A stretch of DNA of 64,000 bases. It comes from Bacteroidales bacterium (GTDB lineage Bacteria; Bacteroidota; Bacteroidia; Bacteroidales; WCHB1-69). Both the position numbers and the translations under genes were made by a program. Position 1 is the first letter of the stretch; each line of letters starts with the position of its first letter. Below, one piece after another: positions 16,308 to 48,017 of this stretch. The notes beneath the pieces were generated by a model that did no database searches, was not told the origin of the DNA, and worked only from the letters and a program-made list of their open reading frames with translations. Location: the NCBI GenBank assembly GCA_017525505.1, contig JAFXSR010000033.1, positions 43,531-107,530 of the forward strand, read 5' to 3'.

Positions 16308-16450
16308 CGTGGAGATGTTAAGACGTGAAGACACTCACTCTGTTCGTTCGTCAAGACACTCGCTTCGCTCGTTCGTGGAGGTGTGAAGGCGGAAAAAACA
16401 GAATGTCGTCTTAACGAATGCACGAAGTGCATGTCTTCACGCCTTCACGT
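16308..16450. repeat. Inverted word-array hairpin downstream of ftcD
   Basis: Forward words (gttaagacgtgaagaca, ggaggtgtgaaggcg) sit at 16308-16392. Their complements (cgtcttaac, tgtcttcacgccttcacgt) sit at 16405-16450, around an aaaaaacagaat loop. Confidence 0.65.
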
Positions 16451-17480: not shown

Positions 17481-17550
17481 GTGTAAAGTACATAGTGTAA
17501 AGTACATAGTGTAAAGTACATAGTATAAAGTATATAGTATAAAGTTTAGG
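17481..17550. repeat. 14-nt tandem word array x5 (GTGTAAAGTACATA and variants)
   Basis: It starts at the base after the nusB stop: three exact copies, then gtataaagtatata and gtataaagtttagg. Confidence 0.9.
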
Positions 17551-19341: not shown

Positions 19342-19500
19342 TTGACAGTTGAAAACTGAAAGTTAATTACTCTTCTATTAGAATCGATGAAGGAGCGAGA
19401 GCAGAGACAAAGCACCCTTTGGCTATCCTGAGCGAGGAGGAGAGGGAGACGTAGCCTCCATCGGTAGCCGAAGGGCGGGGTAGTGACGCAAACATTACGG
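19342..19500 (+). repeat. Family-A composite element, copy 1 (word leader plus about 135 bp GC-hairpin module)
   Basis: gttgacagttgaaaactgaaagttaatt is followed by ...gaaggagcgagag...gagcgaggaggag...gtagcctcc...agccgaagggcggggtagtgacgcaaa. I aligned it by eye at about 80% identity to the reverse complement of 44741-44920. Confidence 0.75.
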
Positions 19501-19571
19501 CGAAGCCGTACCTTAGAGAAGAGAATGAGATGCAATTGGCAAGTTACGCACACATAATAAAAAAACCAAAT

Positions 19572-21175: not shown

Positions 21176-21268
21176 AGTTGAAAGTTGAAAACGGAAAACT
21201 GAAAGTTGAAATTTAAATTCCCCTTATGTTAGAAGGGGTGTACGGAGGGCAGGGTAGTGATGCGAATA
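21176..21268 (+). repeat. Family-A element, short (internally deleted) copy
   Basis: It keeps the word leader gttgaaagttgaaaacggaaaactgaaagttgaaatttaaattcccctt and the terminus gggcagggtagtgatgcgaatataa. It lacks the roughly 85 bp core. Confidence 0.55.
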
Positions 21269-26723: not shown

Positions 26724-27058
26724 TTTTATGAATTGATTCGCGGCGTCAGCACCAACGTACTTACCCCTCAATGTAGTAGGTGATCAGTCGTGCTGAAAGC
26801 ACGCAATCCTATTAACCCCGCATAAGCGTAGCGCAATGTGGGGTATGCGGCAAACAGCTCTGCTCCTGCGTGCCGTAGGTACGCCACATTGGAGAGGATG
26901 TAGCGTGCTTTCAGCACGCAGACAGGACTTGTCATTGTACGCCCCACACAACAAGTTGTGCGGGGTTAATAGGATATCGTGCCTTTGGCACGCCTCTTTG
27001 TCTTTCAAATTGTTTAATGAATTGATTCGCGGCGTCAACACCAACGTACTCATCCCTC
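26724..27058. repeat. Composite palindromic GC-hairpin element flanked by 45 bp direct repeats
   Basis: The direct repeat tgaattgattcgcggcgtcaRcaccaacgtact occurs at 26727-26770 and 27015-27058. The core has a 17 bp perfect inverted repeat: atcctattaaccccgca (about 26806) and tgcggggttaataggat (about 26961). Nested hairpins include cgtgctgaaagcacg, ccccgcataagcgtagcgcaatgtgggg, gcgtgccgtaggtacgc, gcgtgctttcagcacgc, ccccacacaacaagttgtgcgggg and cgtgcctttggcacg. Confidence 0.8.
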
Positions 27059-27160
27059 ACATCTCCATGCTCACATCTCCATGCTCACATCTCCATGCTC
27101 ACCGCTCACTGCCCACCGCTCATCGCTCATCGCTCACCGCCCACCCCTCATAGCTCATAG
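27056..27160. repeat. Word array (CTCACATCTCCATG x3, then CTCAYYGCY words)
   Basis: Three exact 14-mers are followed by ctcaccgctcactgcccaccgctcatcgctcatcgctcaccgcccacccctcatagctcatagc. The complementary words agctatgagccatgagc lie at about 26700-26716, on the other side of the hairpin element. Confidence 0.85.
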
Positions 27161-27201
27161 CAAAATTTACTAATTAAACGATTTGCTAATCAAAAAAATT
27201 G

Positions 27202-31131: not shown

Positions 31132-32298
31132 ATGAAGTTGTTGGTTGTCCTGTCCCGTTTTCCCTATCCCCTCGAAAAAGGGGACAAGTTGCGTGCGTAT
31201 CACCAGATCAGGGTGTTGTCGCGTCAGCACGACATTTATTTGTTCGCCTTGTCCGACAATGAAGTGCCGCTCGCTTCGATGGAGGCCATGAAGCCTTTCT
31301 GCCAAGAAATAAGGGTGGGGCGTTTCTGTTGGTGGACCAAGTTGACCAACAGTTTGCGGGCTTTCTTCAAGGGCTGGCCCATACAGTGCGGTTATTTTTA
31401 CAGTCGCGAGGCGAAAAAGGCTTTGCGGCAGTTTGCCGATGAGGTGAAGCCTGATATGGTTTATGCCCAGTTGGTGAGGACGGTGCCTTACGTTCAGGAG
31501 TTGGAGGGAGAGAAAACAATTGATTATCAGGATGTTTTCTCACAAGGCATGTTACGGCGCGCTCAGCGGGCCCCGTTCTGGAAGAGGCCATTCTTCAAGA
31601 TGGAGTCCCGACGCCTGCGTCGTTATGAGGCGGAGGTTTTCCCTTTGTTCCAGCACCATACCATTATCACGGAGGTGGATCGCGACCTGATGCCTGTGAA
31701 AGAAAAAGACAAGATACGCATCGTGGGCAACGGGGTTGATTTTGAGCAATACAGATATGAGGGGCAGGAGAAAAACTACGATTTGATATTCGCTGGAAAC
31801 ATGAGTTATGCACCCAATGTGGATGCAGCTGAATTTATTGTGAAACAGATACTTCCGAGATTATTGCCGCAGTTCCCGAACTTGCGTTTGGTTTTGTGTG
31901 GCACCGACCCGGCCCCGAGGGTGCGGGCCTTGCAGGGACCACATGTCACCGTCACCGGCTGGGTGGAGTCTATCGCTGAGTATTACGCCCAGTCGCGAAT
32001 TTTTTTGGCTCCGATGCGCTTGGGCACAGGTCTGCAAAACAAGCTCTTGGAGGCCATGGCCACACAGTTGCCCTGCGTTACCTCGCCCTTAGCCGGCAAA
32101 CCCCTCAAAGGCATTACCGATCAGCACGACATCTTGATTTGTGACAAGGTGGAGGAATATGTGGAGGCGATTACCCAATTACTTACGGATAATGTTTATT
32201 ATCAACAAATTTCGCAGCAAGGCTACCAGTATGTGCAACAGCGCTATTCGTGGGAGGCGGCGACGGAGCCATTGTTGCAGTTGACAATTGATAGTTGA
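31132..32298 (+). CDS. Glycosyltransferase family 4 (GT-B)
   Basis: N-terminus KLLVVLSRFPYPLEKGDKLRAYH. The C-terminal GT1/GT4 core reads IFLAPMRLGTGLQNKLLEAMA. It starts 3 nt after the kinase stop. Confidence 0.75.
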   Translation: MKLLVVLSRFPYPLEKGDKLRAYHQIRVLSRQHDIYLFALSDNEVPLASMEAMKPFCQEIRVGRFCWWTKLTNSLRAFFKGWPIQCGYFYSREAKKALRQFADEVKPDMVYAQLVRTVPYVQELEGEKTIDYQDVFSQGMLRRAQRAPFWKRPFFKMESRRLRRYEAEVFPLFQHHTIITEVDRDLMPVKEKDKIRIVGNGVDFEQYRYEGQEKNYDLIFAGNMSYAPNVDAAEFIVKQILPRLLPQFPNLRLVLCGTDPAPRVRALQGPHVTVTGWVESIAEYYAQSRIFLAPMRLGTGLQNKLLEAMATQLPCVTSPLAGKPLKGITDQHDILICDKVEEYVEAITQLLTDNVYYQQISQQGYQYVQQRYSWEAATEPLLQLTIDS

Positions 32299-32354
32299 CA
32301 GTTATTCTTTTCAGGTGAGAAGGTGAGAGGGTTTTATCCAGTTGACAGTTGACA

Positions 32355-32495
32355 ACTGTATGCAGGCCGTAGGTCTGCATGGCTTGGTAGCCCAGGGCAA
32401 CGCCCTGGGGAAATGGTGGATACGAGTGTGTGTTCGCGGCATGGGATGCGTCTGCCCTGATGATGGAACCACGCTGCCGCGAAAGGGTATCGTTA
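32355..32495 (-). repeat. Family-B GC-hairpin element, copy 3 (inverted relative to copies 1 and 2)
   Basis: tgcaggccgtaggtctgca...cccagggcaacgccctggg...ttcgcggcatggg...tgccctgatgatgg...ctgccgcgaaaggg aligns by eye to the reverse complement of 35330-35465. Confidence 0.7.
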
Positions 32496-32527
32496 CAGCC
32501 AATGAAAAATTTCATGTAGTAGCCGTG

Positions 32528-32680
32528 AGTTACACGGTTACGTGGTTACACGGTGAGAAGGTTAAGGGATTTAGAAGGTTTACAAGGTTTAGGAGGTTGA
32601 AGGAGATAAACTTCCTAAACCTCATAAACTACTAACCGTGTAACCGCGTAACCGAGTAAACTTCCAAAGTTCCCCATTGC
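32528..32680. repeat. Long imperfect hairpin built from inverted word arrays (no cargo)
   Basis: The left arm is gagttacacggttacgtggttacacggtgagaaggttaagg...aaggtttaggagg. The right arm is ttcctaaacctcataaactactaaccgtgtaaccgcgtaaccgagtaaac. The ends are complementary: cggttacgYggttacacgg and aggtttagga. Confidence 0.75.
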
Positions 32681-35329: not shown

Positions 35330-35500
35330 CTCACGCCATCCTTTCGTGGCAGGGTAATGTCATCATCGGGGCAAACGTCACCCGTGCCGCGAGGGTGTAT
35401 ATGTGCGGTCCTGTCCCAGGGGCTTTGCCCCTGTCTGTAGTCTGGTCGGCCCTACGGGCCTTGTCTCGTCACAGTAGTACATGCGTGATGATGGACGAGT
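35330..35500 (+). repeat. Family-B GC-hairpin element, copy 1
   Basis: ctttcgtggcagg...cacccgtgccgcgagggtg...caggggctttgcccctg tctgtagtctggtc ggccctacgggcc is colinear with 37316-37480. Confidence 0.75.
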
Positions 35501-36686: not shown

Positions 36687-37211
36687 ATGACAGATGTGGG
36701 AAAGGCATGGTTTGCAATGAAAGTGTTTCAAAACAAGGTTTTTGAAATCGAAAGCTATTTGCAAGCCAAGGACACCGAGACTTATTTTCCGGTACGCTAT
36801 GAGGAGAAAACGATAGGTGGGGTGAAGAAAACGGTGCGCAAGCCGGTCATCACATCTCTGATTTTCTTCCGAACTTATTCCGAAAATCTGGCAGAAATTG
36901 AGAAGGACTTGAGTTCCAAGGTGGCCTTGTATCGCTATAGGAAATCACATCAGGTGGCTGTCATCCCCGATCGGGAGATGGATATCTTCAAGATGGTGAC
37001 CTCGGTGAGCAACAACAACTGGGATTATGTGGATGTGGCGGCCATGAGCTTCCGTCCCGAGGACCGTGTGCGGGTGATCGATGGGGAATTCAAGGGTGCC
37101 GAGGGCTATATCAAGCGCATCAAGGGCAACCGCCGACTCGTAGTTGCCATTGAGGGCGTCGTTGCCGTCGCCACTGCGTACATCCCGTCGTGCTACTTGG
37201 AGAAGTTGTGA
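36687..37211 (+). CDS. UpxY-family (NusG-like) capsule-operon transcription antiterminator
   Basis: The NGN-like N-terminus reads WFAMKVFQNKVFEIESYLQ...YFPV. The KOW motif is RVRVIDGEFKGAEGYIKRIKGNRRLVV. It is the first gene of the polysaccharide locus. Confidence 0.8.
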   Translation: MTDVGKAWFAMKVFQNKVFEIESYLQAKDTETYFPVRYEEKTIGGVKKTVRKPVITSLIFFRTYSENLAEIEKDLSSKVALYRYRKSHQVAVIPDREMDIFKMVTSVSNNNWDYVDVAAMSFRPEDRVRVIDGEFKGAEGYIKRIKGNRRLVVAIEGVVAVATAYIPSCYLEKL

Positions 37212-37315
37212 TAGGTTTGGGTTGCTCTCACCCCACACTTACGTGCGGGGTTACTGAGATATCGCCTCTTCGAGGCTCAAGCGGAACGGCTTCGCCGTAA
37301 TGTATATATCACAGT

Positions 37316-37480
37316 GTCACCCTTTCGCGGCAGGCACAATACAACATCAGGGCAAGAGTACCCCGTGCCGCGAGGATATATGTGGCATCCCGTACCAGGG
37401 GTTTCACCCCTGTCTGTAGTCTGGTTGGCCCTACGGGCCTCGACTCGCCCGGCAATGCATGTGTGCGGGAAGATAGGCAC
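37316..37480 (+). repeat. Family-B GC-hairpin element, copy 2
   Basis: cctttcgcggcagg...ccccgtgccgcgagg...caggggtttcacccctg tctgtagtctggtt ggccctacgggcc. Further hairpins sit upstream at 37215-37300 (ccccacacttacgtgcgggg, gcctcttcgaggc). Confidence 0.75.
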
Positions 37481-37550
37481 ACGGAGGCAAAAAGCTATGG
37501 CGCTGCGTGCGGTGGCCATGCCGATTGGCGAGGAGCCTGTGCGGTGGCAC

Positions 37551-37640
37551 AACAGTTGACAGTTAACAGTTGACAGTTAACAGTTGACAATTGACAGTTG
37601 ACAATTGACAGTTGAAAACTGAAAACTGAAAGTTGACAGG
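37551..37640 (+). repeat. Word array (GTTGACAG / TTAACAG / TTGAAAAC / TGAAAG)
   Basis: The sequence is gttgacagttaacagttgacagttaacagttgacaattgacagttgacaattgacagttgaaaactgaaaactgaaagttgacagg. Confidence 0.9.
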
Positions 37641-37660
37641 ATTCAAGTTTCAGGTTACAG

Positions 37661-37861
37661 TTCAAAATCCATAATCCATAATCCAAAATCTCTTCTAACC
37701 TTCTCACCCTCTCACCTTCCTAACCCTCCTCACCTTCCTAACCCTCCTCACCTTCCTAACCCTCCTCACCTTCCTCACCTTCCTAACCCTCCTAACCCTC
37801 CTAACCTTTACCCCCTCCTAACCCTCCTAACTTTAACCCCCCCCTACCCCCACCCCCTCCC
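37661..37861 (+). repeat. 201-nt G-free, C-rich word array (CCTYCTMAC units) upstream of wza
   Basis: I read it base by base and found no G between 37661 and 37861. Only one G (37862) occurs before the wza ATG. The units read ccttcctaaccctcctcac... Confidence 0.9.
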
Positions 37862-37883
37862 GAAATAAAAAAAACACCATATC

Positions 37884-38714
37884 ATGAAAAAACACCTATT
37901 CTTTATCATTGCCGCAGTGATGCTGCTGGCATCGTGCAACACCACGAAGAAGATCACTTATTTTCAGGATATCCAGAATTATACGGACACGACCAAGTCA
38001 GTGGCGCCTCCGGCTCCGGAAATCCGCTTGCGTCCTGATGACAAGATTTCAGTCATCGTCAACAGCAGAGACCCCGAGTTGACGAATATGTTCAATTTGG
38101 CCTATGTGACGCGTACATTGGGAAGTACAAGTGAAAACATTTCAACGGGAACACAGCATGGAACCTCCGGCTATGTTGTCAAAAGAGACGGTACCATCGA
38201 TTTTCCTGTATTGGGTTCGATAATAGCCGCGGGCAAAACCCGCGAAGAGCTCTCGGCTTATATCAAAAACGAGTTGATTAGCCAGGGTTTGGTCAGCGAT
38301 CCTATTGTGACGGTGGAGTTTATCAACCTGCAGTTTTCCGTAATGGGTGAGGTGAAAAAGCCAGGTTCTTACAATATTAACCGAGATTACATTACCCTTC
38401 TGGATGCTTTGTCCATGGCTGGAGATATGACCATCAGCGGTAAGCGTGAGAATGTGCTGGTATTACGCCCGGACTCTATAGGCAAGCTCACTGCTTATAC
38501 GGTGGATATGCGTTCTTTTGCCGAGGTCCAGAATTCACCGGTTTATTATATCCATCAGAACGATTACATCTATGTGGAGCCTAACAGGAAGAAAGCCAAC
38601 GAGTCAACAGTCAATGCCAACACGGTTCAGTCCGCCGCGTTCTGGATTTCCGTCGCTTCTTTCCTCGCCTCTATCGCCTCCACGATTTCCGTCATCGTGA
38701 CGAGAGCAAAATAA
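37884..38714 (+). CDS. wza: Polysaccharide export outer-membrane lipoprotein (Wza-like)
   Basis: The lipobox is LLASCNT. The Poly_export motif region reads LRPDDKISVIV...DGTIDFPVLGSI.AAGKT..EL, followed by an SLBB-like segment. Confidence 0.85.
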   Translation: MKKHLFFIIAAVMLLASCNTTKKITYFQDIQNYTDTTKSVAPPAPEIRLRPDDKISVIVNSRDPELTNMFNLAYVTRTLGSTSENISTGTQHGTSGYVVKRDGTIDFPVLGSIIAAGKTREELSAYIKNELISQGLVSDPIVTVEFINLQFSVMGEVKKPGSYNINRDYITLLDALSMAGDMTISGKRENVLVLRPDSIGKLTAYTVDMRSFAEVQNSPVYYIHQNDYIYVEPNRKKANESTVNANTVQSAAFWISVASFLASIASTISVIVTRAK

Positions 38715-38804
38715 TTAATGTGCTAATGTGCCAATGGAATTAGTTAATTAGCAAATGAATTTTAATCTGTCAATTGTCAACTGTCAATTATCAATTAAAT
38801 AAAA

Positions 38805-41330
38805 ATGCAAGAAAATCAAAACGCAACAGCGAACAACATTGAACAGCAAGGAGAGCAGGCCATAGACTTGAAGGCGATATTTTACCTTTGCCTTTCCAAT
38901 TGGTACTGGTTTCTGATTTCAGTCATCTTGTGTCTGGCCATAGCCACTTTTTATCTGAAGAAAACCATCCCGGTCTATACCCGTTCAGCCAAAGTGCTGG
39001 TGAAATCCGACAACAAGGGTCACTCAGCCATGAATGTCAGCGATTTCTCGGACCTGGGGCTTTTCAGCAGTGGGGTCAGCATCAACAATGAGCTGCTCAC
39101 CATCCAATCCCTCGACAATGTGGAGGAGGTGGTGCTCCGTTTGCAATTGGATAAAAACTACACTTCCGACGGTCTGCTTCATCCTGTTTTGTTGTACGGA
39201 GAAAATTTGCCCGTCAAGGTGGAGATGCCCGGCATTGACGATCAGGCGGTTCTTTCCTTTGATATTAAACTCCAGGGAACCAAGTTCACCCTTTCCGAAT
39301 TCATGTTGGGTAAGGAAGAGAAAACGGGCTCCGTTACCGCCAAGCTGGGCGATACTGTTGCCACACCGGTGGGTGTTCTTTGTGTGGTTCCCACAGAGTT
39401 TTTCAATCCCAAAAGTCAGTACAAAACCATTCACGTACAGCGTTCCTCTATTGGAAGTACGGCACGAACCTACGTTGGCAAGCTTACGGTGGCGTTGGCG
39501 GCCAAACAGACCGATGTGATGAGCTTGACGGTGAATGACATTTCCAAACAAAGGGCCGACGATTTTATCAATATGCTCATTGCCGTGTATAATGGCAATT
39601 GGCTGAAAGACAAGAACCAGGTAATGGTGAGTACTTCCATGTTTATCAATGACCGTTTGCAGATCATTGAAAAGGAATTGGGCTCGGTGGACGATGACAT
39701 TTCCTCATACAAAAGTGCCAATCTCATGCCCGATGTGGGAGCGGTATCCAGCATCTGGTTGAATCAGAACACGGTTACGACCAACCGAATTCAGGATTTG
39801 AACAACCAGATTGCCATGACCCGCTATGTGCGCAACTATCTGATCAATATGAAGAAGAAAGACCAGCTTCTGCCGGTAAACTCGGGTATTGGCAGTGGAC
39901 AGATCGAAGGTCAGTTAGCGGAATATAACGCCATGATGCTGAAAAGAAACAACCTGGTGGCCCATAGTAGCGAGCAAAGTCCTTTGGTGCTCGAAATGGA
40001 TGACAAGCTGGCCACTATGCGCCAGGCCATCGTTGCCACACTCGACAGCCAGTTGGAAAGCCTCAACACCCTCTTGCAGAGTTTCCAAGGCACTGGACGA
40101 CAAATCAACTCCCGCCTGGCTGCCAGCCCGGGACAGGCCAAGTACTTGTTGTCGGTGGAACGTCAGCAGAAGGTGAAGGAGTCGCTGTATTTGTTCCTCT
40201 TGCAGAAACGTGAGGAAAACGAGTTGTCGCAGGCTTTTACCGCTTACAATACCCGTGTGATTGAGAAACCCAATGGCTCTCCCAATCCTACCAAGCCCAA
40301 AAAGTCTCTCATCCGTTTGGTTGCTGTCATCCTGGGTTTGGCTATTCCGGGCTTTATCCTCTTTATGATCGATTACCTGAACACCACCGTGCGTAGCCGC
40401 AAGGATTTGGAGAAACTGAGTGTGCCGCTCGTTGGCGAGATTCCGTTGGTCTATAATCCGGAGGATGCCAAGAAAAACAGAAAGAAGAAAAAAGAGATAC
40501 GGCATAATGGACAGAGCAATCCTGAGGGTTTCGCCAAGACCGTGGTGGTGAAACATGGCAGCCGTAATGTCATTAACGAGGCTTTCCGTGTGTTCCGTAC
40601 CAATCTGGAGTTCATGACCAAGAACAAGGAGAACAATGTCTTTATGTTCACCTCCTTCAATCCGGGTTCCGGTAAGTCTTTTATCGCCATCAACTCGGCC
40701 ATCAGCTTGGCCATCAAAAAGCGCAAAGTGCTGGTTATCGACGGTGACTTGCGCCATGCCTCCCTGTCCGCCTACATTTTCTCCCCAAAGAAGGGTATCG
40801 CCAATTATTTGGGTCGCCAGGAGGAGGATGTTCATAAATTGATTATCCAGAGTGATGATTATCCTTGTCTGAGCTACCTGCCCGTGGGTACCATTCCGCC
40901 TAACCCCACTGAGTTGCTAGAGGATGAGCGTTTCGGTGAGTTAATCAAAATATTGAAGCAGGAGTATGACTATGTGATGATTGACTGTCCGCCTATCGAC
41001 ATTGTGGCCGACCCGCAGATTATCAACAAGTATGTAGATCGTACCGTCTTCGTGGTGCGTGCCGGTTTGATGGAGCGCAGCCTTATTCCCGAACTGGAGA
41101 AATTATACACGCAGCACAAATATGTCAACTTGTGCATGTTGCTCAACGGCACTACCAGCTCCGATGGCCGCTATGGCTACCGTTACGGTTACCGCTATGG
41201 CTATCGTTATGGTTACCGCTATGGCTACAAGTACGGCTATGGCTATCACAATGCCTACGGCAAGCACAGCGCCTACGGTGGGTATTATCATGAGGATGAT
41301 GAGACGGAGGAGGGGGGAAGTGGAAAGTAG
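38805..41330 (+). CDS. wzc: Polysaccharide co-polymerase / tyrosine autokinase (Wzc-like)
   Basis: It has a Wzz-type N-terminal TM helix and periplasmic coiled coil. The Walker A is TSFNPGSGKSFIAINSA and the Walker B is VMIDCPP. The C-terminal Tyr cluster is GRYGYRYGYRYGYRYGYRYGYKYGYGYHNAYGKHSAYGGYY. Confidence 0.9.
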   Translation: MQENQNATANNIEQQGEQAIDLKAIFYLCLSNWYWFLISVILCLAIATFYLKKTIPVYTRSAKVLVKSDNKGHSAMNVSDFSDLGLFSSGVSINNELLTIQSLDNVEEVVLRLQLDKNYTSDGLLHPVLLYGENLPVKVEMPGIDDQAVLSFDIKLQGTKFTLSEFMLGKEEKTGSVTAKLGDTVATPVGVLCVVPTEFFNPKSQYKTIHVQRSSIGSTARTYVGKLTVALAAKQTDVMSLTVNDISKQRADDFINMLIAVYNGNWLKDKNQVMVSTSMFINDRLQIIEKELGSVDDDISSYKSANLMPDVGAVSSIWLNQNTVTTNRIQDLNNQIAMTRYVRNYLINMKKKDQLLPVNSGIGSGQIEGQLAEYNAMMLKRNNLVAHSSEQSPLVLEMDDKLATMRQAIVATLDSQLESLNTLLQSFQGTGRQINSRLAASPGQAKYLLSVERQQKVKESLYLFLLQKREENELSQAFTAYNTRVIEKPNGSPNPTKPKKSLIRLVAVILGLAIPGFILFMIDYLNTTVRSRKDLEKLSVPLVGEIPLVYNPEDAKKNRKKKKEIRHNGQSNPEGFAKTVVVKHGSRNVINEAFRVFRTNLEFMTKNKENNVFMFTSFNPGSGKSFIAINSAISLAIKKRKVLVIDGDLRHASLSAYIFSPKKGIANYLGRQEEDVHKLIIQSDDYPCLSYLPVGTIPPNPTELLEDERFGELIKILKQEYDYVMIDCPPIDIVADPQIINKYVDRTVFVVRAGLMERSLIPELEKLYTQHKYVNLCMLLNGTTSSDGRYGYRYGYRYGYRYGYRYGYKYGYGYHNAYGKHSAYGGYYHEDDETEEGGSGK

Positions 41331-41383
41331 ATAGTAGAAAGTATAAAGTATAAAGTAGATAGTAGAAAGTAGAAAGTAGATGG
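41328..41383 (+). repeat. 7-nt word array AGTAKAW x8
   Basis: The array agtagat agtagaa agtataa agtataa agtagat agtagaa agtagaa agtagat begins within the wzc stop codon. Confidence 0.9.
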
Positions 41384-41384
41384 G

Positions 41385-41771
41385 TTAGGGGGTGGATAGT
41401 TGATTGTTCAATTTTTTGCGAAGGCCTGAGAGCATTTTTGCTATTTCAGTTATCTGTGGACGCAATTCGTTGAGTTGCGCTTCAGTTATGTAAGCCAGGT
41501 CCGCTGCTGTTTGTAGTTCGCTAAAGACTTCCATTAACGAGCCAAATGATATCTCAAGAAAGTGTATTTTTTCTTTGACAGATTGGCGTCCGCTTCCTTC
41601 CGCAAGATTAGCTGTAATGGAAATAGCTGCTCTACGCACCTGATTTCCAAGTCCATAACGCTCTTCAATAGGGAATATACGCTGCAAGCGATAAACATCT
41701 GCAACCAAAGATCTACATTTCTTATAAACTTCTAACCTTTCAAAAGCAAAACTTCTCATAGAATTCATCAT
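41385..41771 (-). CDS. Four-helix-bundle protein (23S rRNA intervening-sequence / Avd family)
   Basis: FERLEVYKKCRSLVADVYRL...FPIEERYGLGNQVRRAAISITANLAEGSGRQSVKEKIHFLEISFGSLMEV is the family signature. The start is moved to MMNSMRSF. It is antisense to the capsule operon. Confidence 0.85.
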   Translation of the reverse strand: MMNSMRSFAFERLEVYKKCRSLVADVYRLQRIFPIEERYGLGNQVRRAAISITANLAEGSGRQSVKEKIHFLEISFGSLMEVFSELQTAADLAYITEAQLNELRPQITEIAKMLSGLRKKLNNQLSTP

Positions 41772-41825
41772 ATACCAAAATGTAATAAACCAAACTATAA
41801 ACGAAATAAAACAAAAAAAATTATA

Positions 41826-41893
41826 AACCATAAACAAAAAAATCTATAAACCATAAACTATAAACTATATACTATATACTATATACTTTACAA
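41826..41893 (+). repeat. 7-nt word array (CCATAAA / CTATAAA / CTATATA), approximate complement of 41328-41383
   Basis: The sequence is aaccataaacaaaaaaatctataaaccataaactataaactatatactatatactatatactttacaac. Confidence 0.8.
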
Positions 41894-41894
41894 C

Positions 41895-42572
41895 ATGTTA
41901 TTCTCCAAACCAATCAACACCTACCTCAAAGGCTTCACCGACCATCACTCCCATATATTGCCCGGAGTGGATGATGGAGTGAAGAAGATGGAGGTATCCC
42001 TGCAGGTGCTGGAAAAGTACGAGCAGTTGGGTATCGCTGAGGTGTGGTGTACCCCGCATACCATGGAAGATATTCCCAATACTACGGAAGGTCTCAAAAG
42101 CCGTTTTGCGGAGCTGTGCGAGGCCTACAAGGGTCCCATCAAGCTGCATCTGGCTTCTGAATATATGATGGACGGCCTTTTCGAGGAACGTCTGGAAGAG
42201 GGTAATCTGCTGACTTTGGGCGAGGAGGGCAACCAGCTTTTGGTGGAGACCTCTTATTTCACTCCGCCCATCGATATGGACACTATCTTGCGCCGCATCC
42301 GTCAGAAGGGTTATTTCCCAGTGCTGGCTCATCCCGAGCGTTATATATACATGGATAAAGAACAGTATCATGAACTCAAGGACGAGGGTATCCGTTTTCA
42401 GCTCAACCTATCTTCCATTGCCGGTGCTTACGGTCCCGATGTCAAAGCCAAGGCCCTCTGGCTCCTCAAGAAACAATACTACGACCTTGCCGGCTCCGAT
42501 CTCCACTCGCTGAGAAACGTTTCCTTCTGGGAGGCACGAGCTCCGCGGGCCCTGAGGAAGTTTTTGGGATAG
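41895..42572 (+). CDS. PHP-family protein-tyrosine phosphatase (CpsB/YwqE-like)
   Basis: The N-terminal metal motif is DHHSHILPGVDDG, with LAHPERY later. It sits next to the Wzc-like kinase. Confidence 0.85.
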   Translation: MLFSKPINTYLKGFTDHHSHILPGVDDGVKKMEVSLQVLEKYEQLGIAEVWCTPHTMEDIPNTTEGLKSRFAELCEAYKGPIKLHLASEYMMDGLFEERLEEGNLLTLGEEGNQLLVETSYFTPPIDMDTILRRIRQKGYFPVLAHPERYIYMDKEQYHELKDEGIRFQLNLSSIAGAYGPDVKAKALWLLKKQYYDLAGSDLHSLRNVSFWEARAPRALRKFLG

Positions 42573-42632
42573 AAGGATAGAAGGTTAGAAAGGTTAGAAA
42601 GGTTAGGAGGGTTAGGAGGGTTAGGAGGGTTA
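42573..42632 (+). repeat. 8-9-nt word array GGWTAGRAR x8 (part of a 98 nt C-free tract, 42553-42650)
   Basis: The array ggatagaa ggatagaa ggttagaaa ggttagaaa ggttaggag x4 begins at the phosphatase stop. It supplies the last codons of the antisense gene. Confidence 0.9.
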
Positions 42633-43004
42633 GGAGGGTAAAGTGTTTAGCTTTTTTTTGAAAGATGCTCTTAATCCTATTAGCATTTTAGATACATATT
42701 CGAATTCAGGCTTCATTTTGTTTACATTACTGATCGAGATATAATTCAAATCAACAGCTATTAGTAATTGACAATAGCATTCCATTAAAGAACCATAAGC
42801 AATTTCTATAAAGTGGATTTTTTCTTTAACTGATGTTCTACCACTTCCTTCTGCAATATTTGATGGAACAGAAACTATTGACCTTCTGATTTGATCGCAT
42901 AACGCATACCGTTCTATAGACGGAAATTCTTTTAAGGTATCATACACTGAAACAACAAGCTTTTTGGATACTTGCCAAACTTCTAAACTTTCAAACGAGA
43001 ACAT
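42630..43004 (-). CDS. Four-helix-bundle protein (23S rRNA intervening-sequence / Avd family), second copy
   Basis: The family signature is FESLEVWQVSKKLVVSVYDTLKEFPSIERYALCDQIRRSIVSVPSNIAEGSGRTSVKEKIHFIEIAYGSLMEC. Its own TATTTTTG box is at 43040-43047 (minus). Confidence 0.85.
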   Translation of the reverse strand: MFSFESLEVWQVSKKLVVSVYDTLKEFPSIERYALCDQIRRSIVSVPSNIAEGSGRTSVKEKIHFIEIAYGSLMECYCQLLIAVDLNYISISNVNKMKPEFEYVSKMLIGLRASFKKKLNTLPS

Positions 43005-43039
43005 ACTTTCTAAATTTTCAAATGAATAATAAATAATTG

Positions 43040-43047
43040 CAAAAATA
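43040..43047 (-). promoter_or_regulatory. TAnnTTTG promoter box for the second four-helix-bundle gene
   Basis: The reverse complement of caaaaata is TATTTTTG, 36 nt upstream of the ATG at 43004. Confidence 0.5.
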
Positions 43048-43065
43048 CAAAAAAATAAAAATAAC

Positions 43066-43212
43066 CCTCCTAACCCTCCTAACCTTTCTAACCTTCCTAA
43101 CCTTCCTAACCCTCCTAACCCTCCTAACCCTCCTAACCTTCCTAACCTTCCTAACCTTCCTAACCCTCCTAACCCTCCTAACCCTCCTAACCTTCCTAAC
43201 CCTCCTAACCCA
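43066..43212 (+). repeat. 9-nt word array CCTYCTAAC x about 17, inside a 204-nt G-free tract (43040-43243)
   Basis: The units read ccctcctaaccctcctaacctttctaaccttcctaacc.... It is the reverse complement of the arrays at 42573-42632, 44607-44730 and 45825-45912. There is no G until the ugd ATG. Confidence 0.9.
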
Positions 43213-43241
43213 TAAACACTAAACTATAAACATCAAACAAT

Positions 43242-44609
43242 ATGAAAATCTCCGTCGCAGGTACCGGCTATGTGGGTATGAGCATCGCCACTCTACTCGC
43301 TCAACATAATGAAGTAACCGCTGTGGACGTGGTTCCAGAGCGTGTTGACATGGTGAACCATAAAAAGTCTCCTATCCAGGATGACTATATTGAAGACTTT
43401 TTGGCCCACAAACCCTTGACTATCAGTGCTACCCTTGACCAGGAGGCGGGCTACCGCGAGGCCGACTTTGTGGTCATTGCGGCCCCTACCAATTACGACC
43501 CCCAGAAGAATTTCTTCGACACCTCGGCAGTAGAGGCGGTCATTGATGCCGTGCTGAAGGTGAACCCCGATGCGGTTATGGTCATCAAGAGCACCATTCC
43601 GGTGGGATATACCCGTTCGCTGTATGTCAAATATTACAGGCAAGGGGCTAAGAAATTCAACCTGTTGTTCAGCCCCGAGTTCCTGCGCGAGAGCAAGGCC
43701 CTGTACGATAACCTTTATCCCTCTCGTATCATTGTGGGTACCCCGAAAATGATGAAGGGCAAGGACTATGAGGAGGAAAACGAAGCTATCAAGGCACTCA
43801 CCGATATCGACTGGATCAGCCAGAAAGCCCATCAGTTTGCCGGTCTTCTTGTGGAAGGCGCCATCGGCCCCTCTCCAGACACCTGCTCACCCTCTAACCC
43901 TCTCACGCCCTCTCAACCCAACAAAGGCATTTCCGTCCTCTTCATGGGCATGAAGGAAGCCGAGGCGGTGAAGCTTTTCGCCAACACTTACCTGGCTCTC
44001 CGTGTAAGCTATTTTAATGAGTTAGATACCTATGCCGAGGTAAAAGGTCTTGACCCTCAGTCTATTATAGAAGGGGTTGGGCTCGATCCCCGTATTGGTT
44101 CGCATTACAACAACCCCAGTTTCGGTTATGGCGGCTACTGTTTGCCCAAGGATACCAAGCAGCTGCTGGCCAACTATGCCGATGTGCCTCAGAACATGAT
44201 GAGCGCCATCGTGGAAAGCAACAGAACCCGCAAGGACTTTATTGCCGACCAAGTGCTCAAGATGGCAGGTTATTACGCTTATAGCGAGAATAATCAATTC
44301 AAAAATCAGGGTTCAGAATTCAAAGTTCCCACCATTGGTGTCTTTAGATTGACGATGAAATCTAACAGCGACAATTTCCGTCAGTCGGCCATCCAGGGCA
44401 TCATGAAGCGCATCAAGGCCAAGGGGGCCAACGTTATCATCTACGAGCCCACTTTGGAGAACGGTACCATGTTTTTTGGCAGCCTTATTATCAACGACCT
44501 TGTCCAGTTCAAAACCCAGAGCCAGGCTATCATCGCCAACCGTTACGATGCCTGCCTGGATGATGTGAAAGAGAAGGTTTATACGAGGGATATTTTCAAA
44601 AGGGATTAG
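43242..44609 (+). CDS. ugd: UDP-glucose 6-dehydrogenase
   Basis: The Rossmann N-terminus is [21 protein letters not shown]. The catalytic Cys context is [18 protein letters not shown], with [28 protein letters not shown] nearby. Confidence 0.9.
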
Positions 44610-44730
44610 GTTAGAGAGGTTAGGAAGGTTAGGAAGGTTAGAGGGTGAGAAGGTGAGAAGGTTAGAAAGGTTAGGAAGGTTAGAAAGGTTAGGAAGGTTA
44701 GGAAGGTTAGGAAGGTTAGAAGAGATTATG
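44607..44730 (+). repeat. Word array GGTTAGRAR / GGTGAGAA (part of a 154 nt C-free tract, 44598-44751)
   Basis: ggttagagaggttaggaaggttaggaaggttagagggtgagaaggtgagaaggttagaaagg... begins at the ugd stop codon. Confidence 0.9.
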
Positions 44731-44740
44731 GTTTATATTT

Positions 44741-44920
44741 GCGTCACTACCCCGGCCTTCGGCCACCCGTTGGAGGCTACGCCTCCTTTCTCCTCCTCGC
44801 TCGGGAAAGCTCAATCAAGCTTGGCTTTCCTCTCGCTCCTTCGTCGAATCTAAAAGAAGGGGAATTAACTTTCAGTTTTCAGTTTTCAACTGTCAACTGT
44901 CAATTATCAACTATCAACTA
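44741..44920 (-). repeat. Family-A composite element, copy 2 (inverted), including its word leader
   Basis: tttgcgtcactaccccggccttcggccacccgttggaggctacgcctcc...ctcctcgctc...ctctcgctccttcgtcgaatc...aattaactttcagttttcagttttcaactgtcaac is the reverse complement of the copy-1 pattern. Confidence 0.75.
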
Positions 44921-44922
44921 AT

Positions 44923-45813
44923 ATGAAAGGCATCGTTCTCGCCGGAGGTTCCGGCACCAGGTTATATCCTATTACCAAGGGTGTGAGCAAACAGTTGCTG
45001 CCCATTTACGATAAACCTATGGTATATTATCCTATCAGTGCGTTGATGCTGGCGGGGATTAGGGATATTCTGATTATCAGCACCCCTTATGATTTGCCCG
45101 GTTTCAAACGGCTTTTGGGTGATGGCAGCGACTACGGTGTGCATTTCGAGTATGCCGAGCAGCCCAGTCCCGACGGTTTGGCTCAGGCTTTCATCATTGG
45201 CGAGAAGTTCATCGGTGACGATTGTGCCTGCCTGGTGTTGGGTGACAATATATTCTATGGTAACGGCTTTACGACATTGTTGCTCAATGCCGTAAAAGAC
45301 GCGGAGCACAACAAAAAGGCTACCGTTTTTGGCTACTGGGTGGCCGATCCCGAACGCTACGGTGTGGCGGAGTTTGACAAGCAGGGCAATTGCCTGAGTA
45401 TCGAGGAGAAACCGAAAGAACCTAAGAGCAACTATGCCGTGGTGGGGCTCTACTTCTATCCCAACAAGGTGGTGAATGTGGCCAAGACCATCAAACCTTC
45501 CGCGCGTGGCGAGTTGGAGATTACCACCGTCAACCAGCGTTTTCTGGAAGATGGAGAGTTGAAGGTGCAGGTCTTTGGTCGTGGTTTTGCCTGGCTGGAC
45601 ACGGGTACGCATGATTCATTGGCCGAGGCTTCCATTTTTGTGGAGACCATCGAGAAACGTACAGGATTGAAAATCGCCTGCCTTGAGGGCATCGCCTACC
45701 GCAACGGCTGGATCAGCGAGGAAAAGATGCGTCAGCTGGCCCAGCCGATGCTGAAGAACCAATACGGCCAGTACCTGCTGAAGGTGATTGACGAGATGAG
45801 CAGTGAGCGGTGA
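44923..45813 (+). CDS. rfbA: Glucose-1-phosphate thymidylyltransferase
   Basis: [37 protein letters not shown] is the canonical RmlA N-terminus. Confidence 0.95.
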
Positions 45814-45955
45814 GCGGTGAGGCCTGAGGTTAGGAGGGTTAGGAGGGTTAGGAGGGTTAGGAAGGTTAGGAAGGTTAGGAAGGTTAGGAAGGTTAGGAAG
45901 GTTAGGAGGTTACACGGTTAGAAGGTTAGAAGGTGAAAGGGGTTTAGGAGGTTTA
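45814..45955 (+). repeat. Word array (GTGAGCG, GGTTAGGAR x12, GGTTAGAA, GGTTTAGGA)
   Basis: The words start inside the last rfbA codons (agtgagcggtgagcggtgagg). A C-free stretch spans 45825-45912. Confidence 0.9.
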
Positions 45956-45990
45956 GATGGCAAGTGCTTCCTCAAGGATGTGAATGCTAC
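45956..45990 (+). pseudogene. Orphan 35-bp fragment of a nucleotide-sugar dehydrogenase gene (DGKCFLKDVNA)
   Basis: gatggcaagtgcttcctcaaggatgtgaatgct matches ggtggcaaatgcttccctaaggatgtgaacgct at 47846-47878 at 28 of 33 positions. The differences are mostly at third codon positions. Confidence 0.6.
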
Positions 45991-46007
45991 TAATATATAA
46001 TATTAGA

Positions 46008-47675
46008 ATGAAAGGTATACAAAATACTATTACAGGAAATTTTAGCTCAATTATCAGCAATAGCCGGCGTTTTGTTGTCCCGAAATTCCAAAGAGACTAT
46101 TCGTGGAGTAGTGAGCAGTGGGATGATCTGTGGCAAGATATTGAGACGATGATAGAGGAGCATGATGAACATTACATGGGTTATCTTGTTCTTCAGACTC
46201 AAGACGATAAGCTTTTTTACATAATAGATGGACAGCAGCGCTTTACTACGGTATTGATTCTTATTTATGCTGCAATAAAGTGCGTGCAGAGACAGATTGC
46301 CCAGGGTGTGGATGTTGAGGACAATAGGCGTCGATGCGAATCTTTGAAGAATTTGTACATAGGGAAAGAGGATCCTGTAACATTAGACTATGACAACCTC
46401 TTAACTTTGAACAGGAATAATAACGCTTATTTCTGTGACTATATCTTGAAATTGGGTGATTTGAAGGCACGAAATCTTACAGCAACAGAAAAACTGATGC
46501 GTAGCTGCTTTGAGTATTATGAGCAAAGGCTTATTGGCAAGTTCAATAGTGGAAAAGAGTATGCTTCTTTCATCCAGACAGTTGCAGATGGTTTGCATTT
46601 TACGCAAATCGTGGTCAATGATGAGATGAATGCATTCCGTGTATTTGAGACTCTGAATGCACGTGGCGTTCAATTGTCATCTGCAGACTTGTTAAAGAAT
46701 TATTTGTTCTCTAAAGTTGATAGCGAAACCACTCATAGTAGCCGTATAGATACGTTAGAGCGCAAATGGAGCAAGCTCACCGATAATATTAAGGCCGAGA
46801 AGCTTCCAGAGTTTCTTCGCTATTATTGGAATATGCAGCACAAAACAATTCGTGCCAATGCCGTATATAAAACTATTCGTCAGGAGATTAAGGAAGATAA
46901 GCAAGTGTTCCTTTTGTTGGATGACCTCATCTCTTATAGTGATATTTATATGGCATTGACTGATGAGAATGATGAAATGTGGACAGATTCGGAGGTTAAG
47001 GATAATGTGGCTCTGCTTAATCTTTTCCGCCTGAAACAGCCTTTCTCATTGCTTATGGCTGCCAAGAAGAGTTTGACGGACAATGAGTTCAAACGGGTGC
47101 TGAAGACTGTTATCATGGTGTGTTTTCGCTATAATGTAATCTGCGATAGAAATCCCAATGACCAAGAAACTCCATTTAATGCGCTTGCTCAATCTATAAG
47201 CCATAATAATCTTGTTGATTTGAAGGAGCTTTCATCGATCATGGTGGATGATGCTGAGTTCAAGAGTGCATTTAAAGAAAAGACTTTCCCTTATAACTCG
47301 CGTAATGCCAAAGTTATGAGGTACATATTGGGAAAGATAGAGCATTTCAAAGGCTCTGCCCAGGCAGTTCGTTTTGATGATGAGAACGCATCTATAGAAC
47401 ATGTTTATCCCCAGAATCCTTCTGAAGAGTGGGATTTGGACGAATCTAAGATGCAACGTTTTGTTTTTCGACTTGGAAACATCTGCCTTTTGGAAAAAGG
47501 ATTGAATAGGGATTTGCAAAATGCAAGTTTCGCAGAAAAGGTTTCAGTTTATAAAAAGTCATCATTTTATTATGCTCAAAAAATATCATCAGAATATAAT
47601 GAATGGAATGATAGCGCTATAATAAAGCTTCAGACCGAGATGGCAAACGCTGCTGTATCTATTTGGCGAGTATAA
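46008..47675 (+). CDS. DUF262 + DUF1524 protein (GmrSD-like type IV restriction / nucleotide-targeting defence enzyme)
   Basis: The N-terminal DUF262 motifs are FVVPKFQRDYSWSSEQWDDLWQDI and IIDGQQRFTT. The C-terminal His-Me/DUF1524-like motifs are IEHVYPQNP...GNICLLEKGLNRDLQNASFAEK. The start is moved to MKGIQNT. Confidence 0.8.
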   Translation: MKGIQNTITGNFSSIISNSRRFVVPKFQRDYSWSSEQWDDLWQDIETMIEEHDEHYMGYLVLQTQDDKLFYIIDGQQRFTTVLILIYAAIKCVQRQIAQGVDVEDNRRRCESLKNLYIGKEDPVTLDYDNLLTLNRNNNAYFCDYILKLGDLKARNLTATEKLMRSCFEYYEQRLIGKFNSGKEYASFIQTVADGLHFTQIVVNDEMNAFRVFETLNARGVQLSSADLLKNYLFSKVDSETTHSSRIDTLERKWSKLTDNIKAEKLPEFLRYYWNMQHKTIRANAVYKTIRQEIKEDKQVFLLLDDLISYSDIYMALTDENDEMWTDSEVKDNVALLNLFRLKQPFSLLMAAKKSLTDNEFKRVLKTVIMVCFRYNVICDRNPNDQETPFNALAQSISHNNLVDLKELSSIMVDDAEFKSAFKEKTFPYNSRNAKVMRYILGKIEHFKGSAQAVRFDDENASIEHVYPQNPSEEWDLDESKMQRFVFRLGNICLLEKGLNRDLQNASFAEKVSVYKKSSFYYAQKISSEYNEWNDSAIIKLQTEMANAAVSIWRV

Positions 47676-47691
47676 TTGAATAAAGATAATT

Positions 47692-47974
47692 ATGATCAAC
47701 GTCGGAATCATCGGCTGCGGCTTCGTGGGTGGAGCCCTCAAGGAGTGGTTGGAACACAACAATCCTGAATGCAAGCTTTTCATCAGCGACCCCGCCAAGG
47801 GCTACACACACCCATGTTCCGGGTCCCGACGGCAAGTACGGTTATGGTGGCAAATGCTTCCCTAAGGATGTGAACGCTTTCGCCAAGATGACGGAAGGCA
47901 CATCCCTTGGAACTCTTCTGGAACACCTCCACGAGCTTAATGTCCATTTCCGTGGGGAGGAAGAGCATATCTGA
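47692..47974 (+). pseudogene. Remnant of a nucleotide-sugar dehydrogenase gene (internal deletion plus frameshift)
   Basis: Frame 1 reads MINVGIIGCGFVGGALKEWLEHNNPECKLFISDPAKGY, a Rossmann N-terminus, and then becomes junk. Frame 2 from about 47815 reads VPGPDGKYGYGGKCFPKDVNAFAK..., the catalytic-Cys motif. Hundreds of codons are missing between the two. Confidence 0.75.
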
Positions 47975-48017
47975 AACCTATAAAAAGCGTACTAGAACAC
48001 AAATATAGCAAAACATT

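Follow-up and report, generated by a model that had tools for sequence, protein, structure and literature searches.

In this study, we report the analysis of two small genes that lie antisense within a capsule operon of an uncultured rumen Bacteroidales bacterium, on a 64 kb stretch of DNA with a G+C content of 46% (the window, by which the whole of that stretch is meant). Both are four-helix-bundle (4HB) genes of the family described by the profiles PF05635 and TIGR02436, and both stand between complementary arrays of short tandem words. An earlier sequence-only reading of the window had drawn attention to this arrangement and likened it to the intervening sequences (IVSs) of 23S rRNA; the arrangement is real and non-random, and the IVS analogy is the best available frame for it. 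On balance, we lean towards the view that each locus is a copy of a repeat-armed 4HB cassette found throughout the family, an IVS-like stem-loop placed in the spacers of mRNA. The strongest evidence is the recurrence of the arrangement across the family and across phyla; the window itself is confounded by the many similar arrays that it carries.

The two genes, 4HB-1 (41385..41771, minus strand, 128 aa) and 4HB-2 (42630..43004, minus strand, 124 aa), are antisense to the surrounding wzc, PHP phosphatase and ugd genes. Both products cover PF05635 from position 1 to position 106 of 106, with E values of 7e-35 (119.9 bits) for 4HB-1 and 4e-36 (123.8 bits) for 4HB-2 against a cut-off of 33.8 bits, and they score 113.6 and 115.1 bits, respectively, with TIGR02436 (cut-off 24 bits). 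They are 48% identical to each other, which bears out their description as antisense paralogues between these three capsule genes, and no further 4HB gene was found in the window. Genes were called by codon-usage scoring together with explicit 4HB detection, longest open reading frame (ORF) calling being misled by the arrays into spurious or broken ORFs. Both 4HB genes were rejected by the codon-usage filter, which was trained on the neighbouring genes, and their G+C contents are 0.37 (4HB-1) and 0.32 (4HB-2) against 0.46 for the window. The proteins carry a slight excess of basic residues (16-18 K+R against 13-14 D+E). One solved relative was found by sequence, Xcc0516 (PDB 2GSC; match with 4HB-2, E 2e-17), whose homologues share the conserved motif (G)xxRxxxSxxxNxxE (PMC3936711); RxxxSxxxNxxE is present in both translations, as RRSIVSVPSNIAE in 4HB-2 and RRAAISITANLAE in 4HB-1.

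The flanks of the family were surveyed in an independent sample of 80 metagenome loci (L057-L136), mostly from the rumen, which were found with an alignment of six 4HB proteins and hold 83 4HB genes, 53-67% identical to 4HB-2. For each gene, one 200-nt flank was compared with the reverse complement of the other by Smith-Waterman (SW) alignment, and a score of at least 30 was taken as a bracket. Complementary flanks at this threshold were present for 47 of the 71 4HB genes and for 2 of the 184 other genes, with none among the 77 genes that were not next to a 4HB gene. An array lay within 40 nt of the 5' end in 54/83 4HB genes, compared with 21/186 other gene ends (those not facing a 4HB gene), and within 40 nt of the 3' end in 54/81 compared with 22/165, which amounts to 65-67% against 11-13% of gene ends. 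Direct similarity between the flanks (SW of at least 30) was also seen, in 20/71 4HB genes and 7/184 other genes. Relatives of 4HB-1 were bracketed by complementary flanks in six cases out of seven.

The same layout was found well outside the Bacteroidales. A tblastn search of PLSDB with 4HB-2 returned 23 plasmid records, nearly all from Cyanobacteria, with Azospirillum and Gemmatirosa, and of the 14 that were examined 12 showed complementary heptamer flanks (SW of at least 29). The arm words on these plasmids are GGGAGTA/TACTCCC, GGGTGTA/TACACCC, AGGAGTC/GACTCCT and GGGAAAA/TTTTCCC, and in Azospirillum GAGGACG/CGTCCTC. Several of the sites lie in cas clusters, between cas6 and cas4 (Anabaena sp. 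90, Pseudanabaena) or between cas10 and cmr3 (Picosynechococcus); others lie antisense between two ribonucleotide-reductase genes (Nostoc edaphicum) or between toxin-secretion genes (Calothrix), between a gene for an AAA-family ATPase and parB, or after an integrase gene. The complementary-array bracket is thus a property of the PF05635 family in at least three phyla, far beyond the two genes of the window. A single query retrieved more than 4,600 distinct 4HB relatives. Two further observations concern this material. The cas-associated 4HB genes of the cyanobacterial plasmids L143, L144 and L147, between cas6/cas4 and cas10/cmr3, have complementary heptamer arms, and the upstream arm in Anabaena sp. 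90 consists of ~300 nt of GGTGACA/GGGAACA repeats. Many 4HB homologues are known solely from contigs shorter than 2 kb, consistent with the breaking of short-read assemblies at the arrays.

These counts bear directly on coincidence as an explanation, in which generic spacer repeats of the short tandemly repeated repetitive (STRR) or heptamer type mark the ends of genes and the 4HB genes merely lie among them. Coincidence was suspected at first, from the window and the loci L007, L029 and L036. About 12 spacers of the window that contain no 4HB gene carry arrays, free of C after stop codons and free of G before start codons, and array hairpins occur, without any 4HB gene, in the sister lineage L007. 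In that first small sample the strongest brackets surrounded ordinary genes, with ugd of the window (SW 156) and the PHP gene of L036 (SW 238) bracketed more strongly than either 4HB gene, so that within the window the bracket is not peculiar to 4HB genes. The strongly bracketed ordinary genes of the first sample lie between array-bearing spacers, most of them with a cassette. Where a locus has only two or three arrays, those arrays flank the 4HB gene, and the layout recurs in Cyanobacteria and Azospirillum. Coincidence was accordingly rejected on the 80-locus sample and the plasmid loci, and we now regard it as very improbable.

Read in the orientation of the 4HB gene, the canonical cassette consists of a G/T-rich array, a leader, the ORF and a complementary C/A-rich array. 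The arrays of the sampled cassettes have a period of 7 or 8, and their arms a median length of 35 nt (range 18-76); in the window the period is 7 in cassette 1, as in most relatives, and 9 in cassette 2. Words vary by locus (GGTTATT, GCTTAAT, GTTTACN, GATTAGT and GGTTAGGAG among them), those of the Bacteroidales sharing a G-N-T-T-A core, and the two arms of one cassette match. The 3' array begins a median of 2 nt before the stop codon, and thus encodes the stop codon and often the last residues as well; in the window the 3' arm overlaps the stop of 4HB-2 and ends one base short of that of 4HB-1. The polarity is nearly uniform, with the G-rich arm 5' in 40 cassettes and the C-rich arm 5' in one; both cassettes of the window likewise have a G-rich 5' arm. 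Because the structure is an inverted repeat, this G-rich-first order is the same on both strands.

Placement relative to the neighbouring genes is more varied. Thirty-three cassettes run in the same direction as both neighbours, 17 stand at the end of an operon and 9 are antisense to both neighbours. The antisense placement that the sequence-only reading emphasised is therefore true of the window and a minority form elsewhere, most cassettes being in the sense direction within operons. The Bacteroidetes -7 box, TAnnTTTG, was absent from all 52 cassettes with a co-directional upstream gene and present in 7 of the 9 with a divergent upstream neighbour, 20-110 nt from the ATG. The 4HB-2 gene fits the antisense form exactly: its -7 box, TATTTTTG (43040..43047, minus strand), lies 36 nt upstream of the ATG, inside the arms and between the upstream arm and the ORF, and is the sole TAnnTTTG on either strand of 41300-43300. 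No exact TAnnTTTG box was found for 4HB-1.

The four arrays of the window, described here on the plus strand, were confirmed by Tandem Repeats Finder (TRF) at the positions read from the sequence. In cassette 1, arm A (41318..41383) is composed of AGTAGAA/AGTATAA heptamers with 17 G and no C, begins at the wzc stop and is the 3' arm in 4HB orientation; TRF gave 41318-41380, 7 nt x9.0, and the DNA is free of C for 78 nt past the wzc stop. Arm A' (41818..41893; TRF 41818-41887, 7 nt x9.7), the 5' arm, is composed of G-free CTATAAA/CCATAAA/CTATATA heptamers and ends just before the PHP start. In cassette 2, arm B (42567..42639; TRF 42572-42639, 9 nt x7.7) is composed of GGATAGAA/GGTTAGRAG nonamers with 34 G and no C, begins at the PHP stop and overlaps the last codons and stop of 4HB-2. 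Arm B' (43062..43211; TRF 43062-43211, 9 nt x16.7), the 5' arm, is composed of G-free CCTYCTAAC nonamers; between it and the ugd ATG at 43242 lie ATAAACA words. The window contains 24 copies of CCTYCTAAC, where 0.63 would be expected. The unit number of arm B' across near-identical assemblies is 16, 10 or 8-9, and such counts from metagenome assemblies (16 versus 10, for example) need caution. Arrays on the plus strand lack C after stop codons and lack G before start codons, and they are intergenic throughout, save where a 3' arm overlaps the end of an ORF.

The array words also bear a resemblance to the 5' end of the ORFs. A conserved stretch encoding part of the N-terminus of 4HB-1 (41730-41744, F-E-R-L-E-V, TTTGAAAGGTTAGAAGTT) agrees with the array word GAAAGGTTAGAA (42585-42599) at 14/15 positions, and TRF flags a similar stretch in 4HB-2 (42970-42996) as a repeat. 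This resemblance may be due to chance or may hint at relatedness.

Arms B and B' form an inverted repeat, 60 nt at up to 95%. Their predicted duplex has 68 pairs and a free energy of -117.8 kcal/mol, compared with -62.5±4.3 for shuffled arms, and the RNA fold of 42560-43250 reaches -180 kcal/mol against -121±7 for shuffles (z = -8.3), in a structure that pairs the arms and leaves the gene in the loop. The duplex of arms A and A' is weak (-24.9 against -13.0±2.9 kcal/mol for shuffles), and the pair is not among the 25 longest inverted repeats. The bracketing arrangement thus holds fully for cassette 2 and marginally for cassette 1; of the two pairs of complementary arms that had been proposed, the second stands and the first is retained only in weak form.

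Comparison of the sequences indicates that the cassettes are horizontally exchanged modules, foreign in composition, which are gained, lost and replaced among close relatives. Identity is consistently higher in the ORF than in its flanks, at 97% against 83-86% between the window and L142, 97% against 78% between L086 and L123, and 93% against 74% between L065 and L076. Between L101 and L102 the only shared sequence is 452 nt (99% identical) that covers the ORF and short pieces of array, ~46 nt and 16 nt; L078/L086 and L042/L044 likewise have identical ORFs in unrelated contexts. One identical 128-aa 4HB protein follows at least five different upstream gene contexts. The core class of the arm word also tracks the phylogeny of the protein: in 54/67 cases a cassette and its nearest neighbour (below 90% identity) agree in class, against 0.36 expected, and 0/500 permutations reached this value. 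Mobility or exchange is supported by such identical ORFs, whose flanks are unrelated and whose homology breaks off within the arrays, and by presence and absence among relatives; a mobile cassette is among the possibilities that the sequence-only reading had raised. We consider it very probable that both the architecture and the exchange between genomes are real.

The capsule locus itself exists in several states. Both cassettes are present in the window and in six near-identical assemblies. Among the lineages whose PHP gene is at least 90% identical to that of the window (L007, L141, L142 and L137), neither cassette is present in L007 (PHP 94% identical, same gene order) or L141, and the L007 spacers still hold complementary arrays of other words. 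L142 has cassette 2 alone, at the same site, with a 4HB-2 orthologue that is 94% identical and a right arm of 3-5 units against 16. L137 has a different, degenerate antisense 4HB gene with ATGGATT/AATCCAT arms, adjoining leftover GGTTAGGAGG arrays. The more distant L036 carries three cassettes in mixed orientation, of which the antisense 4HBb is 72% identical to 4HB-2.

Three further comparisons of spacers were noted. The conserved wzc-PHP spacer of L137 (3716-3985) contains, relative to that of L141 (3870-4005), a 270-nt insertion made of arrays only, G-type words followed by C-type words. It is flanked by the direct repeat CCCCCCAA, the only candidate target-site duplication, which may represent the duplication left by a cargo-free array element. 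The ugd-rmlA spacer is a 4HB cassette with ATTGACA/CAATTATC arms in L167 (3712-4169) and a unique long palindrome (GTCATTTCGAC...GTCGAAATGAC) in L168 (3712-3827). The ugd and rmlA genes of these two loci are 93% and 86% identical, and their homology stops precisely at the stop and start codons; the spacers thus behave as exchangeable hairpin modules. Finally, the contig L003, otherwise identical, exits the capsule locus at 7170-7300, directly behind a shortened CCTCCTAAC array, and runs on into a gene of the Ala_racemase_N family. Such a junction is either an assembly chimera formed via dispersed arrays of the same word or a real rearrangement at the array.

Several observations weigh against the reading of these loci as IVS-like cassettes. 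The fold of 41310-41900, which contains cassette 1, does not improve on shuffles (z = -0.25). This genome and L007 have many arrays and array hairpins that lack a 4HB gene; arms need not belong to the gene. Arrays of the same words elsewhere would compete for the arms of cassette 2, and the pairings that would enclose ugd or longer stretches match or exceed its own in strength. The competing arrays are a G-free CTAACCTTC/CCTCCTAAC array upstream of wza with no adjoining 4HB gene (37695..37831, plus strand), which pairs with arm B at -100.4 kcal/mol, and two C-free plus-strand arrays that both exceed arm B as partners of arm B', namely AGGTTAGRA words beginning at the ugd stop (44608..44721; -166.5 kcal/mol), which together with arm B' bracket ugd, and AGGTTAGGA words after rmlA (45827..45934; -190.7 kcal/mol). 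In the sample, the 20/71 cassettes with direct arrays are joined by 17/71 without a bracket, and the orthologous cassette of L036 (4HBb) has direct arrays. No enzyme that might mobilise the cassettes is evident. Comparing the window with L007, L141, L137 and L142, and L167 with L168, defined neither an insertion boundary nor a target duplication; what distinguishes an occupied site from an empty one is a substitution of the entire spacer, stop codon to start codon, rather than a clean insertion. Among mismatches between the arms, G·U is not favoured on either strand (49 vs 66; 161 transversions).

The G·U wobble bias was used as a test of selection at the RNA level and, since none was found, such selection is not demonstrated and RNA pairing is neither supported nor excluded by it; processes at the level of DNA could keep the arms complementary. 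A role in DNA would make the arrays portable stretches of homology or slippage for exchange, deletion, duplication and inversion, with complementarity as a by-product, for example of arm conversion. Besides the lack of G·U bias, this explanation draws on the homology of identical cassettes in different contexts, which ends inside the arrays, on copy number that varies between near-identical assemblies, on spacers that are layered or replaced, and on contigs that break or misjoin at arrays, with many homologues on very short contigs. It does not predict the 40:1 order of the arms, which a 5'-to-3' process such as transcription does predict. Inverted repeats of at least 60 nt should also flip the gene between them, yet no orientation flip was seen and a single orientation was found in 7/7 assemblies (the six near-identical ones and L142); the sense and antisense forms, moreover, differ by a promoter segment and not by a simple flip. 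We judge a purely DNA-level role to be somewhat unlikely, though it retains an appreciable share of the probability.

For the favoured repeat-armed cassette, a mechanism of RNA pairing and RNase III cleavage can be put forward tentatively, by analogy, with somewhat less than even confidence. A transcript crossing the cassette on either strand would make the G-rich arm first, and the emerging G-free, C-rich arm would be captured into a long stem (~68 pairs, -118 kcal/mol in cassette 2) with the cargo looped out. The stem would be a substrate for RNase III, as in the rRNA IVSs. Unpaired C-rich, G-free RNA would resemble a Rho loading (rut, for Rho utilisation) site, and pairing would keep a 150-nt stretch of this kind from being exposed; the UpxY-dependent capsule transcript would thereby reach ugd. 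With the opposite arm order, the C-rich arm would be exposed while the ~400 nt of cargo were transcribed. The strand-symmetric G-rich-first order is as expected for a process coupled to transcription. The antisense transcript of the cassette would start within the arms and end with the unpaired C-rich arm at its 3' end, and cassette 1 would be a copy that has decayed or recombined, with arms that have diverged from each other.

The sequence upstream of ugd is compatible with such read-through. The ugd ATG is preceded by a 202-nt run without G, no TAnnTTTG box occurs on the plus strand anywhere in 41300-43300. Expression of ugd by read-through, which had been proposed from the missing box and the missing G, is plausible because no promoter box is present and an UpxY-type antiterminator stands at the head of the operon. 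Scans for sigma-70 promoters and intrinsic terminators gave nothing beyond chance, with no terminator after either 4HB gene.

Not every array hairpin of the window encloses a gene. Word arrays without a 4HB gene are found in the spacers at 17480-17545, 21176-21211, 27056-27161, 32274-32659, 37552-37831, 44608-44721, 44870-44920 and 45797-45934, among others. Complementary arrays form cargo-free hairpins at 32529-32660 (GGTTACACGG.../...CCGTGTAACC) and in L007 at 2165-2363 (GGTTAGGAAGG.../...CCTCCTAACC); these may represent cassette arms in an empty or non-autonomous form. GC-rich, hairpin-prone repeat elements lie between word arrays in the spacers at 16320-16450, 19366-19520, 44735-44865, 35337-35468, 37215-37550 and 32360-32520, as an alternative cargo to 4HB genes. 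The element at 19366-19520 matches that at 44735-44865 in reverse complement (81% identity), that at 16320-16450 recurs in L007, L141 and L142, and that at 37215-37550 recurs in L007 and L141. None of these elements corresponds to an Rfam family at the gathering threshold, at which Rfam gave nothing in the window except one tRNA.

Such hairpins could instead belong to the host, serving in stabilisation, processing or translational coupling in the manner of repetitive extragenic palindromic (REP) sequences and bacterial interspersed mosaic elements (BIMEs), with the 4HB genes as passengers tolerated only in the loops. The cargo-free array hairpins at 32529-32660 and in the wza-wzc spacer of L007 are in keeping with this, as are the unique long palindrome that serves as the alternative spacer of L168, the several window spacers that fold at z below -4, and the GC-rich palindromic elements that occupy other loops. 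Host hairpins give no account, however, of the covariation of arms with 4HB lineage or of the 3' arm being fused to the end of the ORF, and they leave unexplained why the same layout surrounds one gene family in cas, ribonucleotide-reductase and plasmid-maintenance clusters of other phyla. We consider this explanation distinctly unlikely.

The covariation of arm words with protein lineage raises another possibility, that the arrays are periodic binding sites, in RNA or DNA, for an oligomer of the encoded Avd-like 4HB protein, with a role in autoregulation, protection or repeat propagation. Avd relatives bind nucleic acid in complex with reverse transcriptase, in diversity-generating retroelements, which lends this idea some credit. 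The nearest-neighbour agreement of word classes (54/67, with 0/500 permutations) is what such binding would give, the association is found in three phyla with lineage-specific words, and the 4HB proteins are mildly basic; a study of Nostoc has also postulated an unidentified heptamer-binding protein. The correlation would, however, follow just as well if arms and gene were simply inherited together, many arrays lie far from any 4HB gene, and the S23p ORF of Coxiella is reported to be probably untranslated (PMC4990558). We consider binding of the arrays by the encoded protein unlikely.

The operon in which the two cassettes lie (36687-45813, plus strand) encodes an UpxY-like NusG paralogue, wza, wzc, a CpsB/CapC PHP phosphatase, ugd and rmlA, in agreement with the identities assigned to these neighbours in the sequence-only reading. 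The C-terminal tail of Wzc (YGYRYGYRYG...) is rich in tyrosine and is encoded by a 12/24-nt tandem repeat (41168-41246) that nearly reaches arm A; a Tyr-rich tail is a normal trait of bacterial tyrosine kinases. Downstream of the operon (region 45950-47975) stands a GmrSD-type restriction gene (45984-47675), and after it the remnant, internally deleted, of a gene resembling that for UDP-glucose dehydrogenase. The pieces of this remnant at 47692-47823 and 47804-47971 correspond to residues 1-44 and 196-251, respectively, of the intact gene L101:2322-3077, and a short near-duplicate of the remnant (GGCAAGTGCTTCCTCAAGGATGTGAATGC) lies just before the GmrSD gene at ~45957-45985.

No published description of PF05635 genes bracketed by complementary word arrays was found in the literature searched, subscription journals being outside its coverage. 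To our knowledge, the very large PF05635/TIGR02436 family, whose members are annotated as 'S23 ribosomal protein', has no known function. Heptamer arrays have been puzzling ever since STRR sequences were described, and neither a binding partner nor an origin is known for them. The pairing of STRR-type heptamer arrays with the PF05635 family, in a stem-loop cassette tolerated in either orientation by operons of three phyla, gives both problems one testable frame. In practical terms, word arrays break or misjoin metagenome assemblies at capsule and defence loci. Genes annotated 23S_rRNA_IVP have been catalogued as cas-associated (PMC3936711); the cassette view recasts that association, which could equally be explained by insertion of cassettes into operon spacers. 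A wider extension, speculative and in our estimate rather unlikely, would make PF05635 genes with their arrays cross-phylum mobile 'mRNA intervening sequences', in which the Avd-like protein recognises its own arm words and drives propagation. The cargo-free hairpins and the STRR or heptamer arrays of Cyanobacteria, Bacteroidota and Beggiatoaceae would then be footprints or non-autonomous derivatives, and the ORF-bearing rRNA IVSs would be the same element landed in rRNA.

Among known systems, integron cassettes resemble the 4HB cassettes in being small promoter-less ORFs joined to a structured recombination sequence, arranged in series behind an upstream promoter and found in many contexts. 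Each integron cassette has only one attC, downstream, and depends on an integrase and attI, whereas 4HB cassettes have two word arms, occur in both orientations and have no linked integrase. REP sequences and BIMEs are likewise repeated hairpin mosaics between the genes of operons and after stop codons, and both they and the cassettes are candidates for mRNA processing, stability or interference with Rho; REP sequences, unlike cassettes, are unique palindromes of ~35 nt that are mobilised by a REP-associated tyrosine transposase (RAYT) and contain neither an ORF nor tandem words. Arrays of TAACTGA-type heptamers have been reported from Beggiatoaceae, Cyanobacteria and Bacteroidetes, with no linked gene noted (MacGregor 2015, PMC4679880). 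Like the cassette arms, the STRR and TAACTGA-type arrays lie between genes, often abutting a start codon, and consist of tandem words of 7 nt (9 nt in cassette 2); they vary in steps of 7 nt and are present in the same phyla. The reports describe unpaired direct repeats without a linked gene, whereas the cassettes have complementary, locus-specific pairs around one gene family.

Avd is a small four-helix-bundle protein with a fold homologous to that of the 4HB proteins. The Avd profiles match the two proteins weakly (PF22296, bAvd; NF033474 at 34.2 and 25.4 bits against an equivalog cut-off of 80), and no reverse transcriptase or template/variable repeat pair adjoins the 4HB genes among their immediate neighbours, to which the screen of the window was confined. 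With that cut-off missed and wzc, PHP and ugd as neighbours, identification of 4HB-1 or 4HB-2 as the Avd of a diversity-generating retroelement was rejected; word arrays, in addition, are not a feature of these retroelements.

The closest parallel is the IVS of 23S rRNA, as in Leptospira and Coxiella burnetii. The Coxiella IVS is 428 nt long, with a 28-bp terminal stem that is cut by RNase III and an S23p ORF in the loop, and has a G+C content of 36% against 42.5% for the genome (PMC4990558). RNase III cleavage has been demonstrated only for rRNA IVSs (PMC4990558). As in the cassettes, a PF05635-family ORF occupies the loop of a stem with complementary termini, the G+C content is below that of the host, and the element is sporadic among relatives, with evidence of horizontal transfer (PMC4990558). 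The IVS-like geometry that was read from the window, with an ORF in the loop, complementary termini, low G+C and sporadic presence, is thus borne out, the stem of cassette 1 being marginal. A strict 23S rRNA IVS was rejected for both loci, which lie between protein-coding capsule genes and not in rRNA helix 9, 25 or 45. The cassettes differ from these IVSs in occupying mRNA spacers of protein-coding operons, in either orientation, and their arms are tandem words of 7-9 nt, up to 150 nt long and variable in copy number, whereas the Coxiella IVS has a unique 28-bp inverted repeat. The cassette view thereby extends the IVS concept from rRNA to mRNA.

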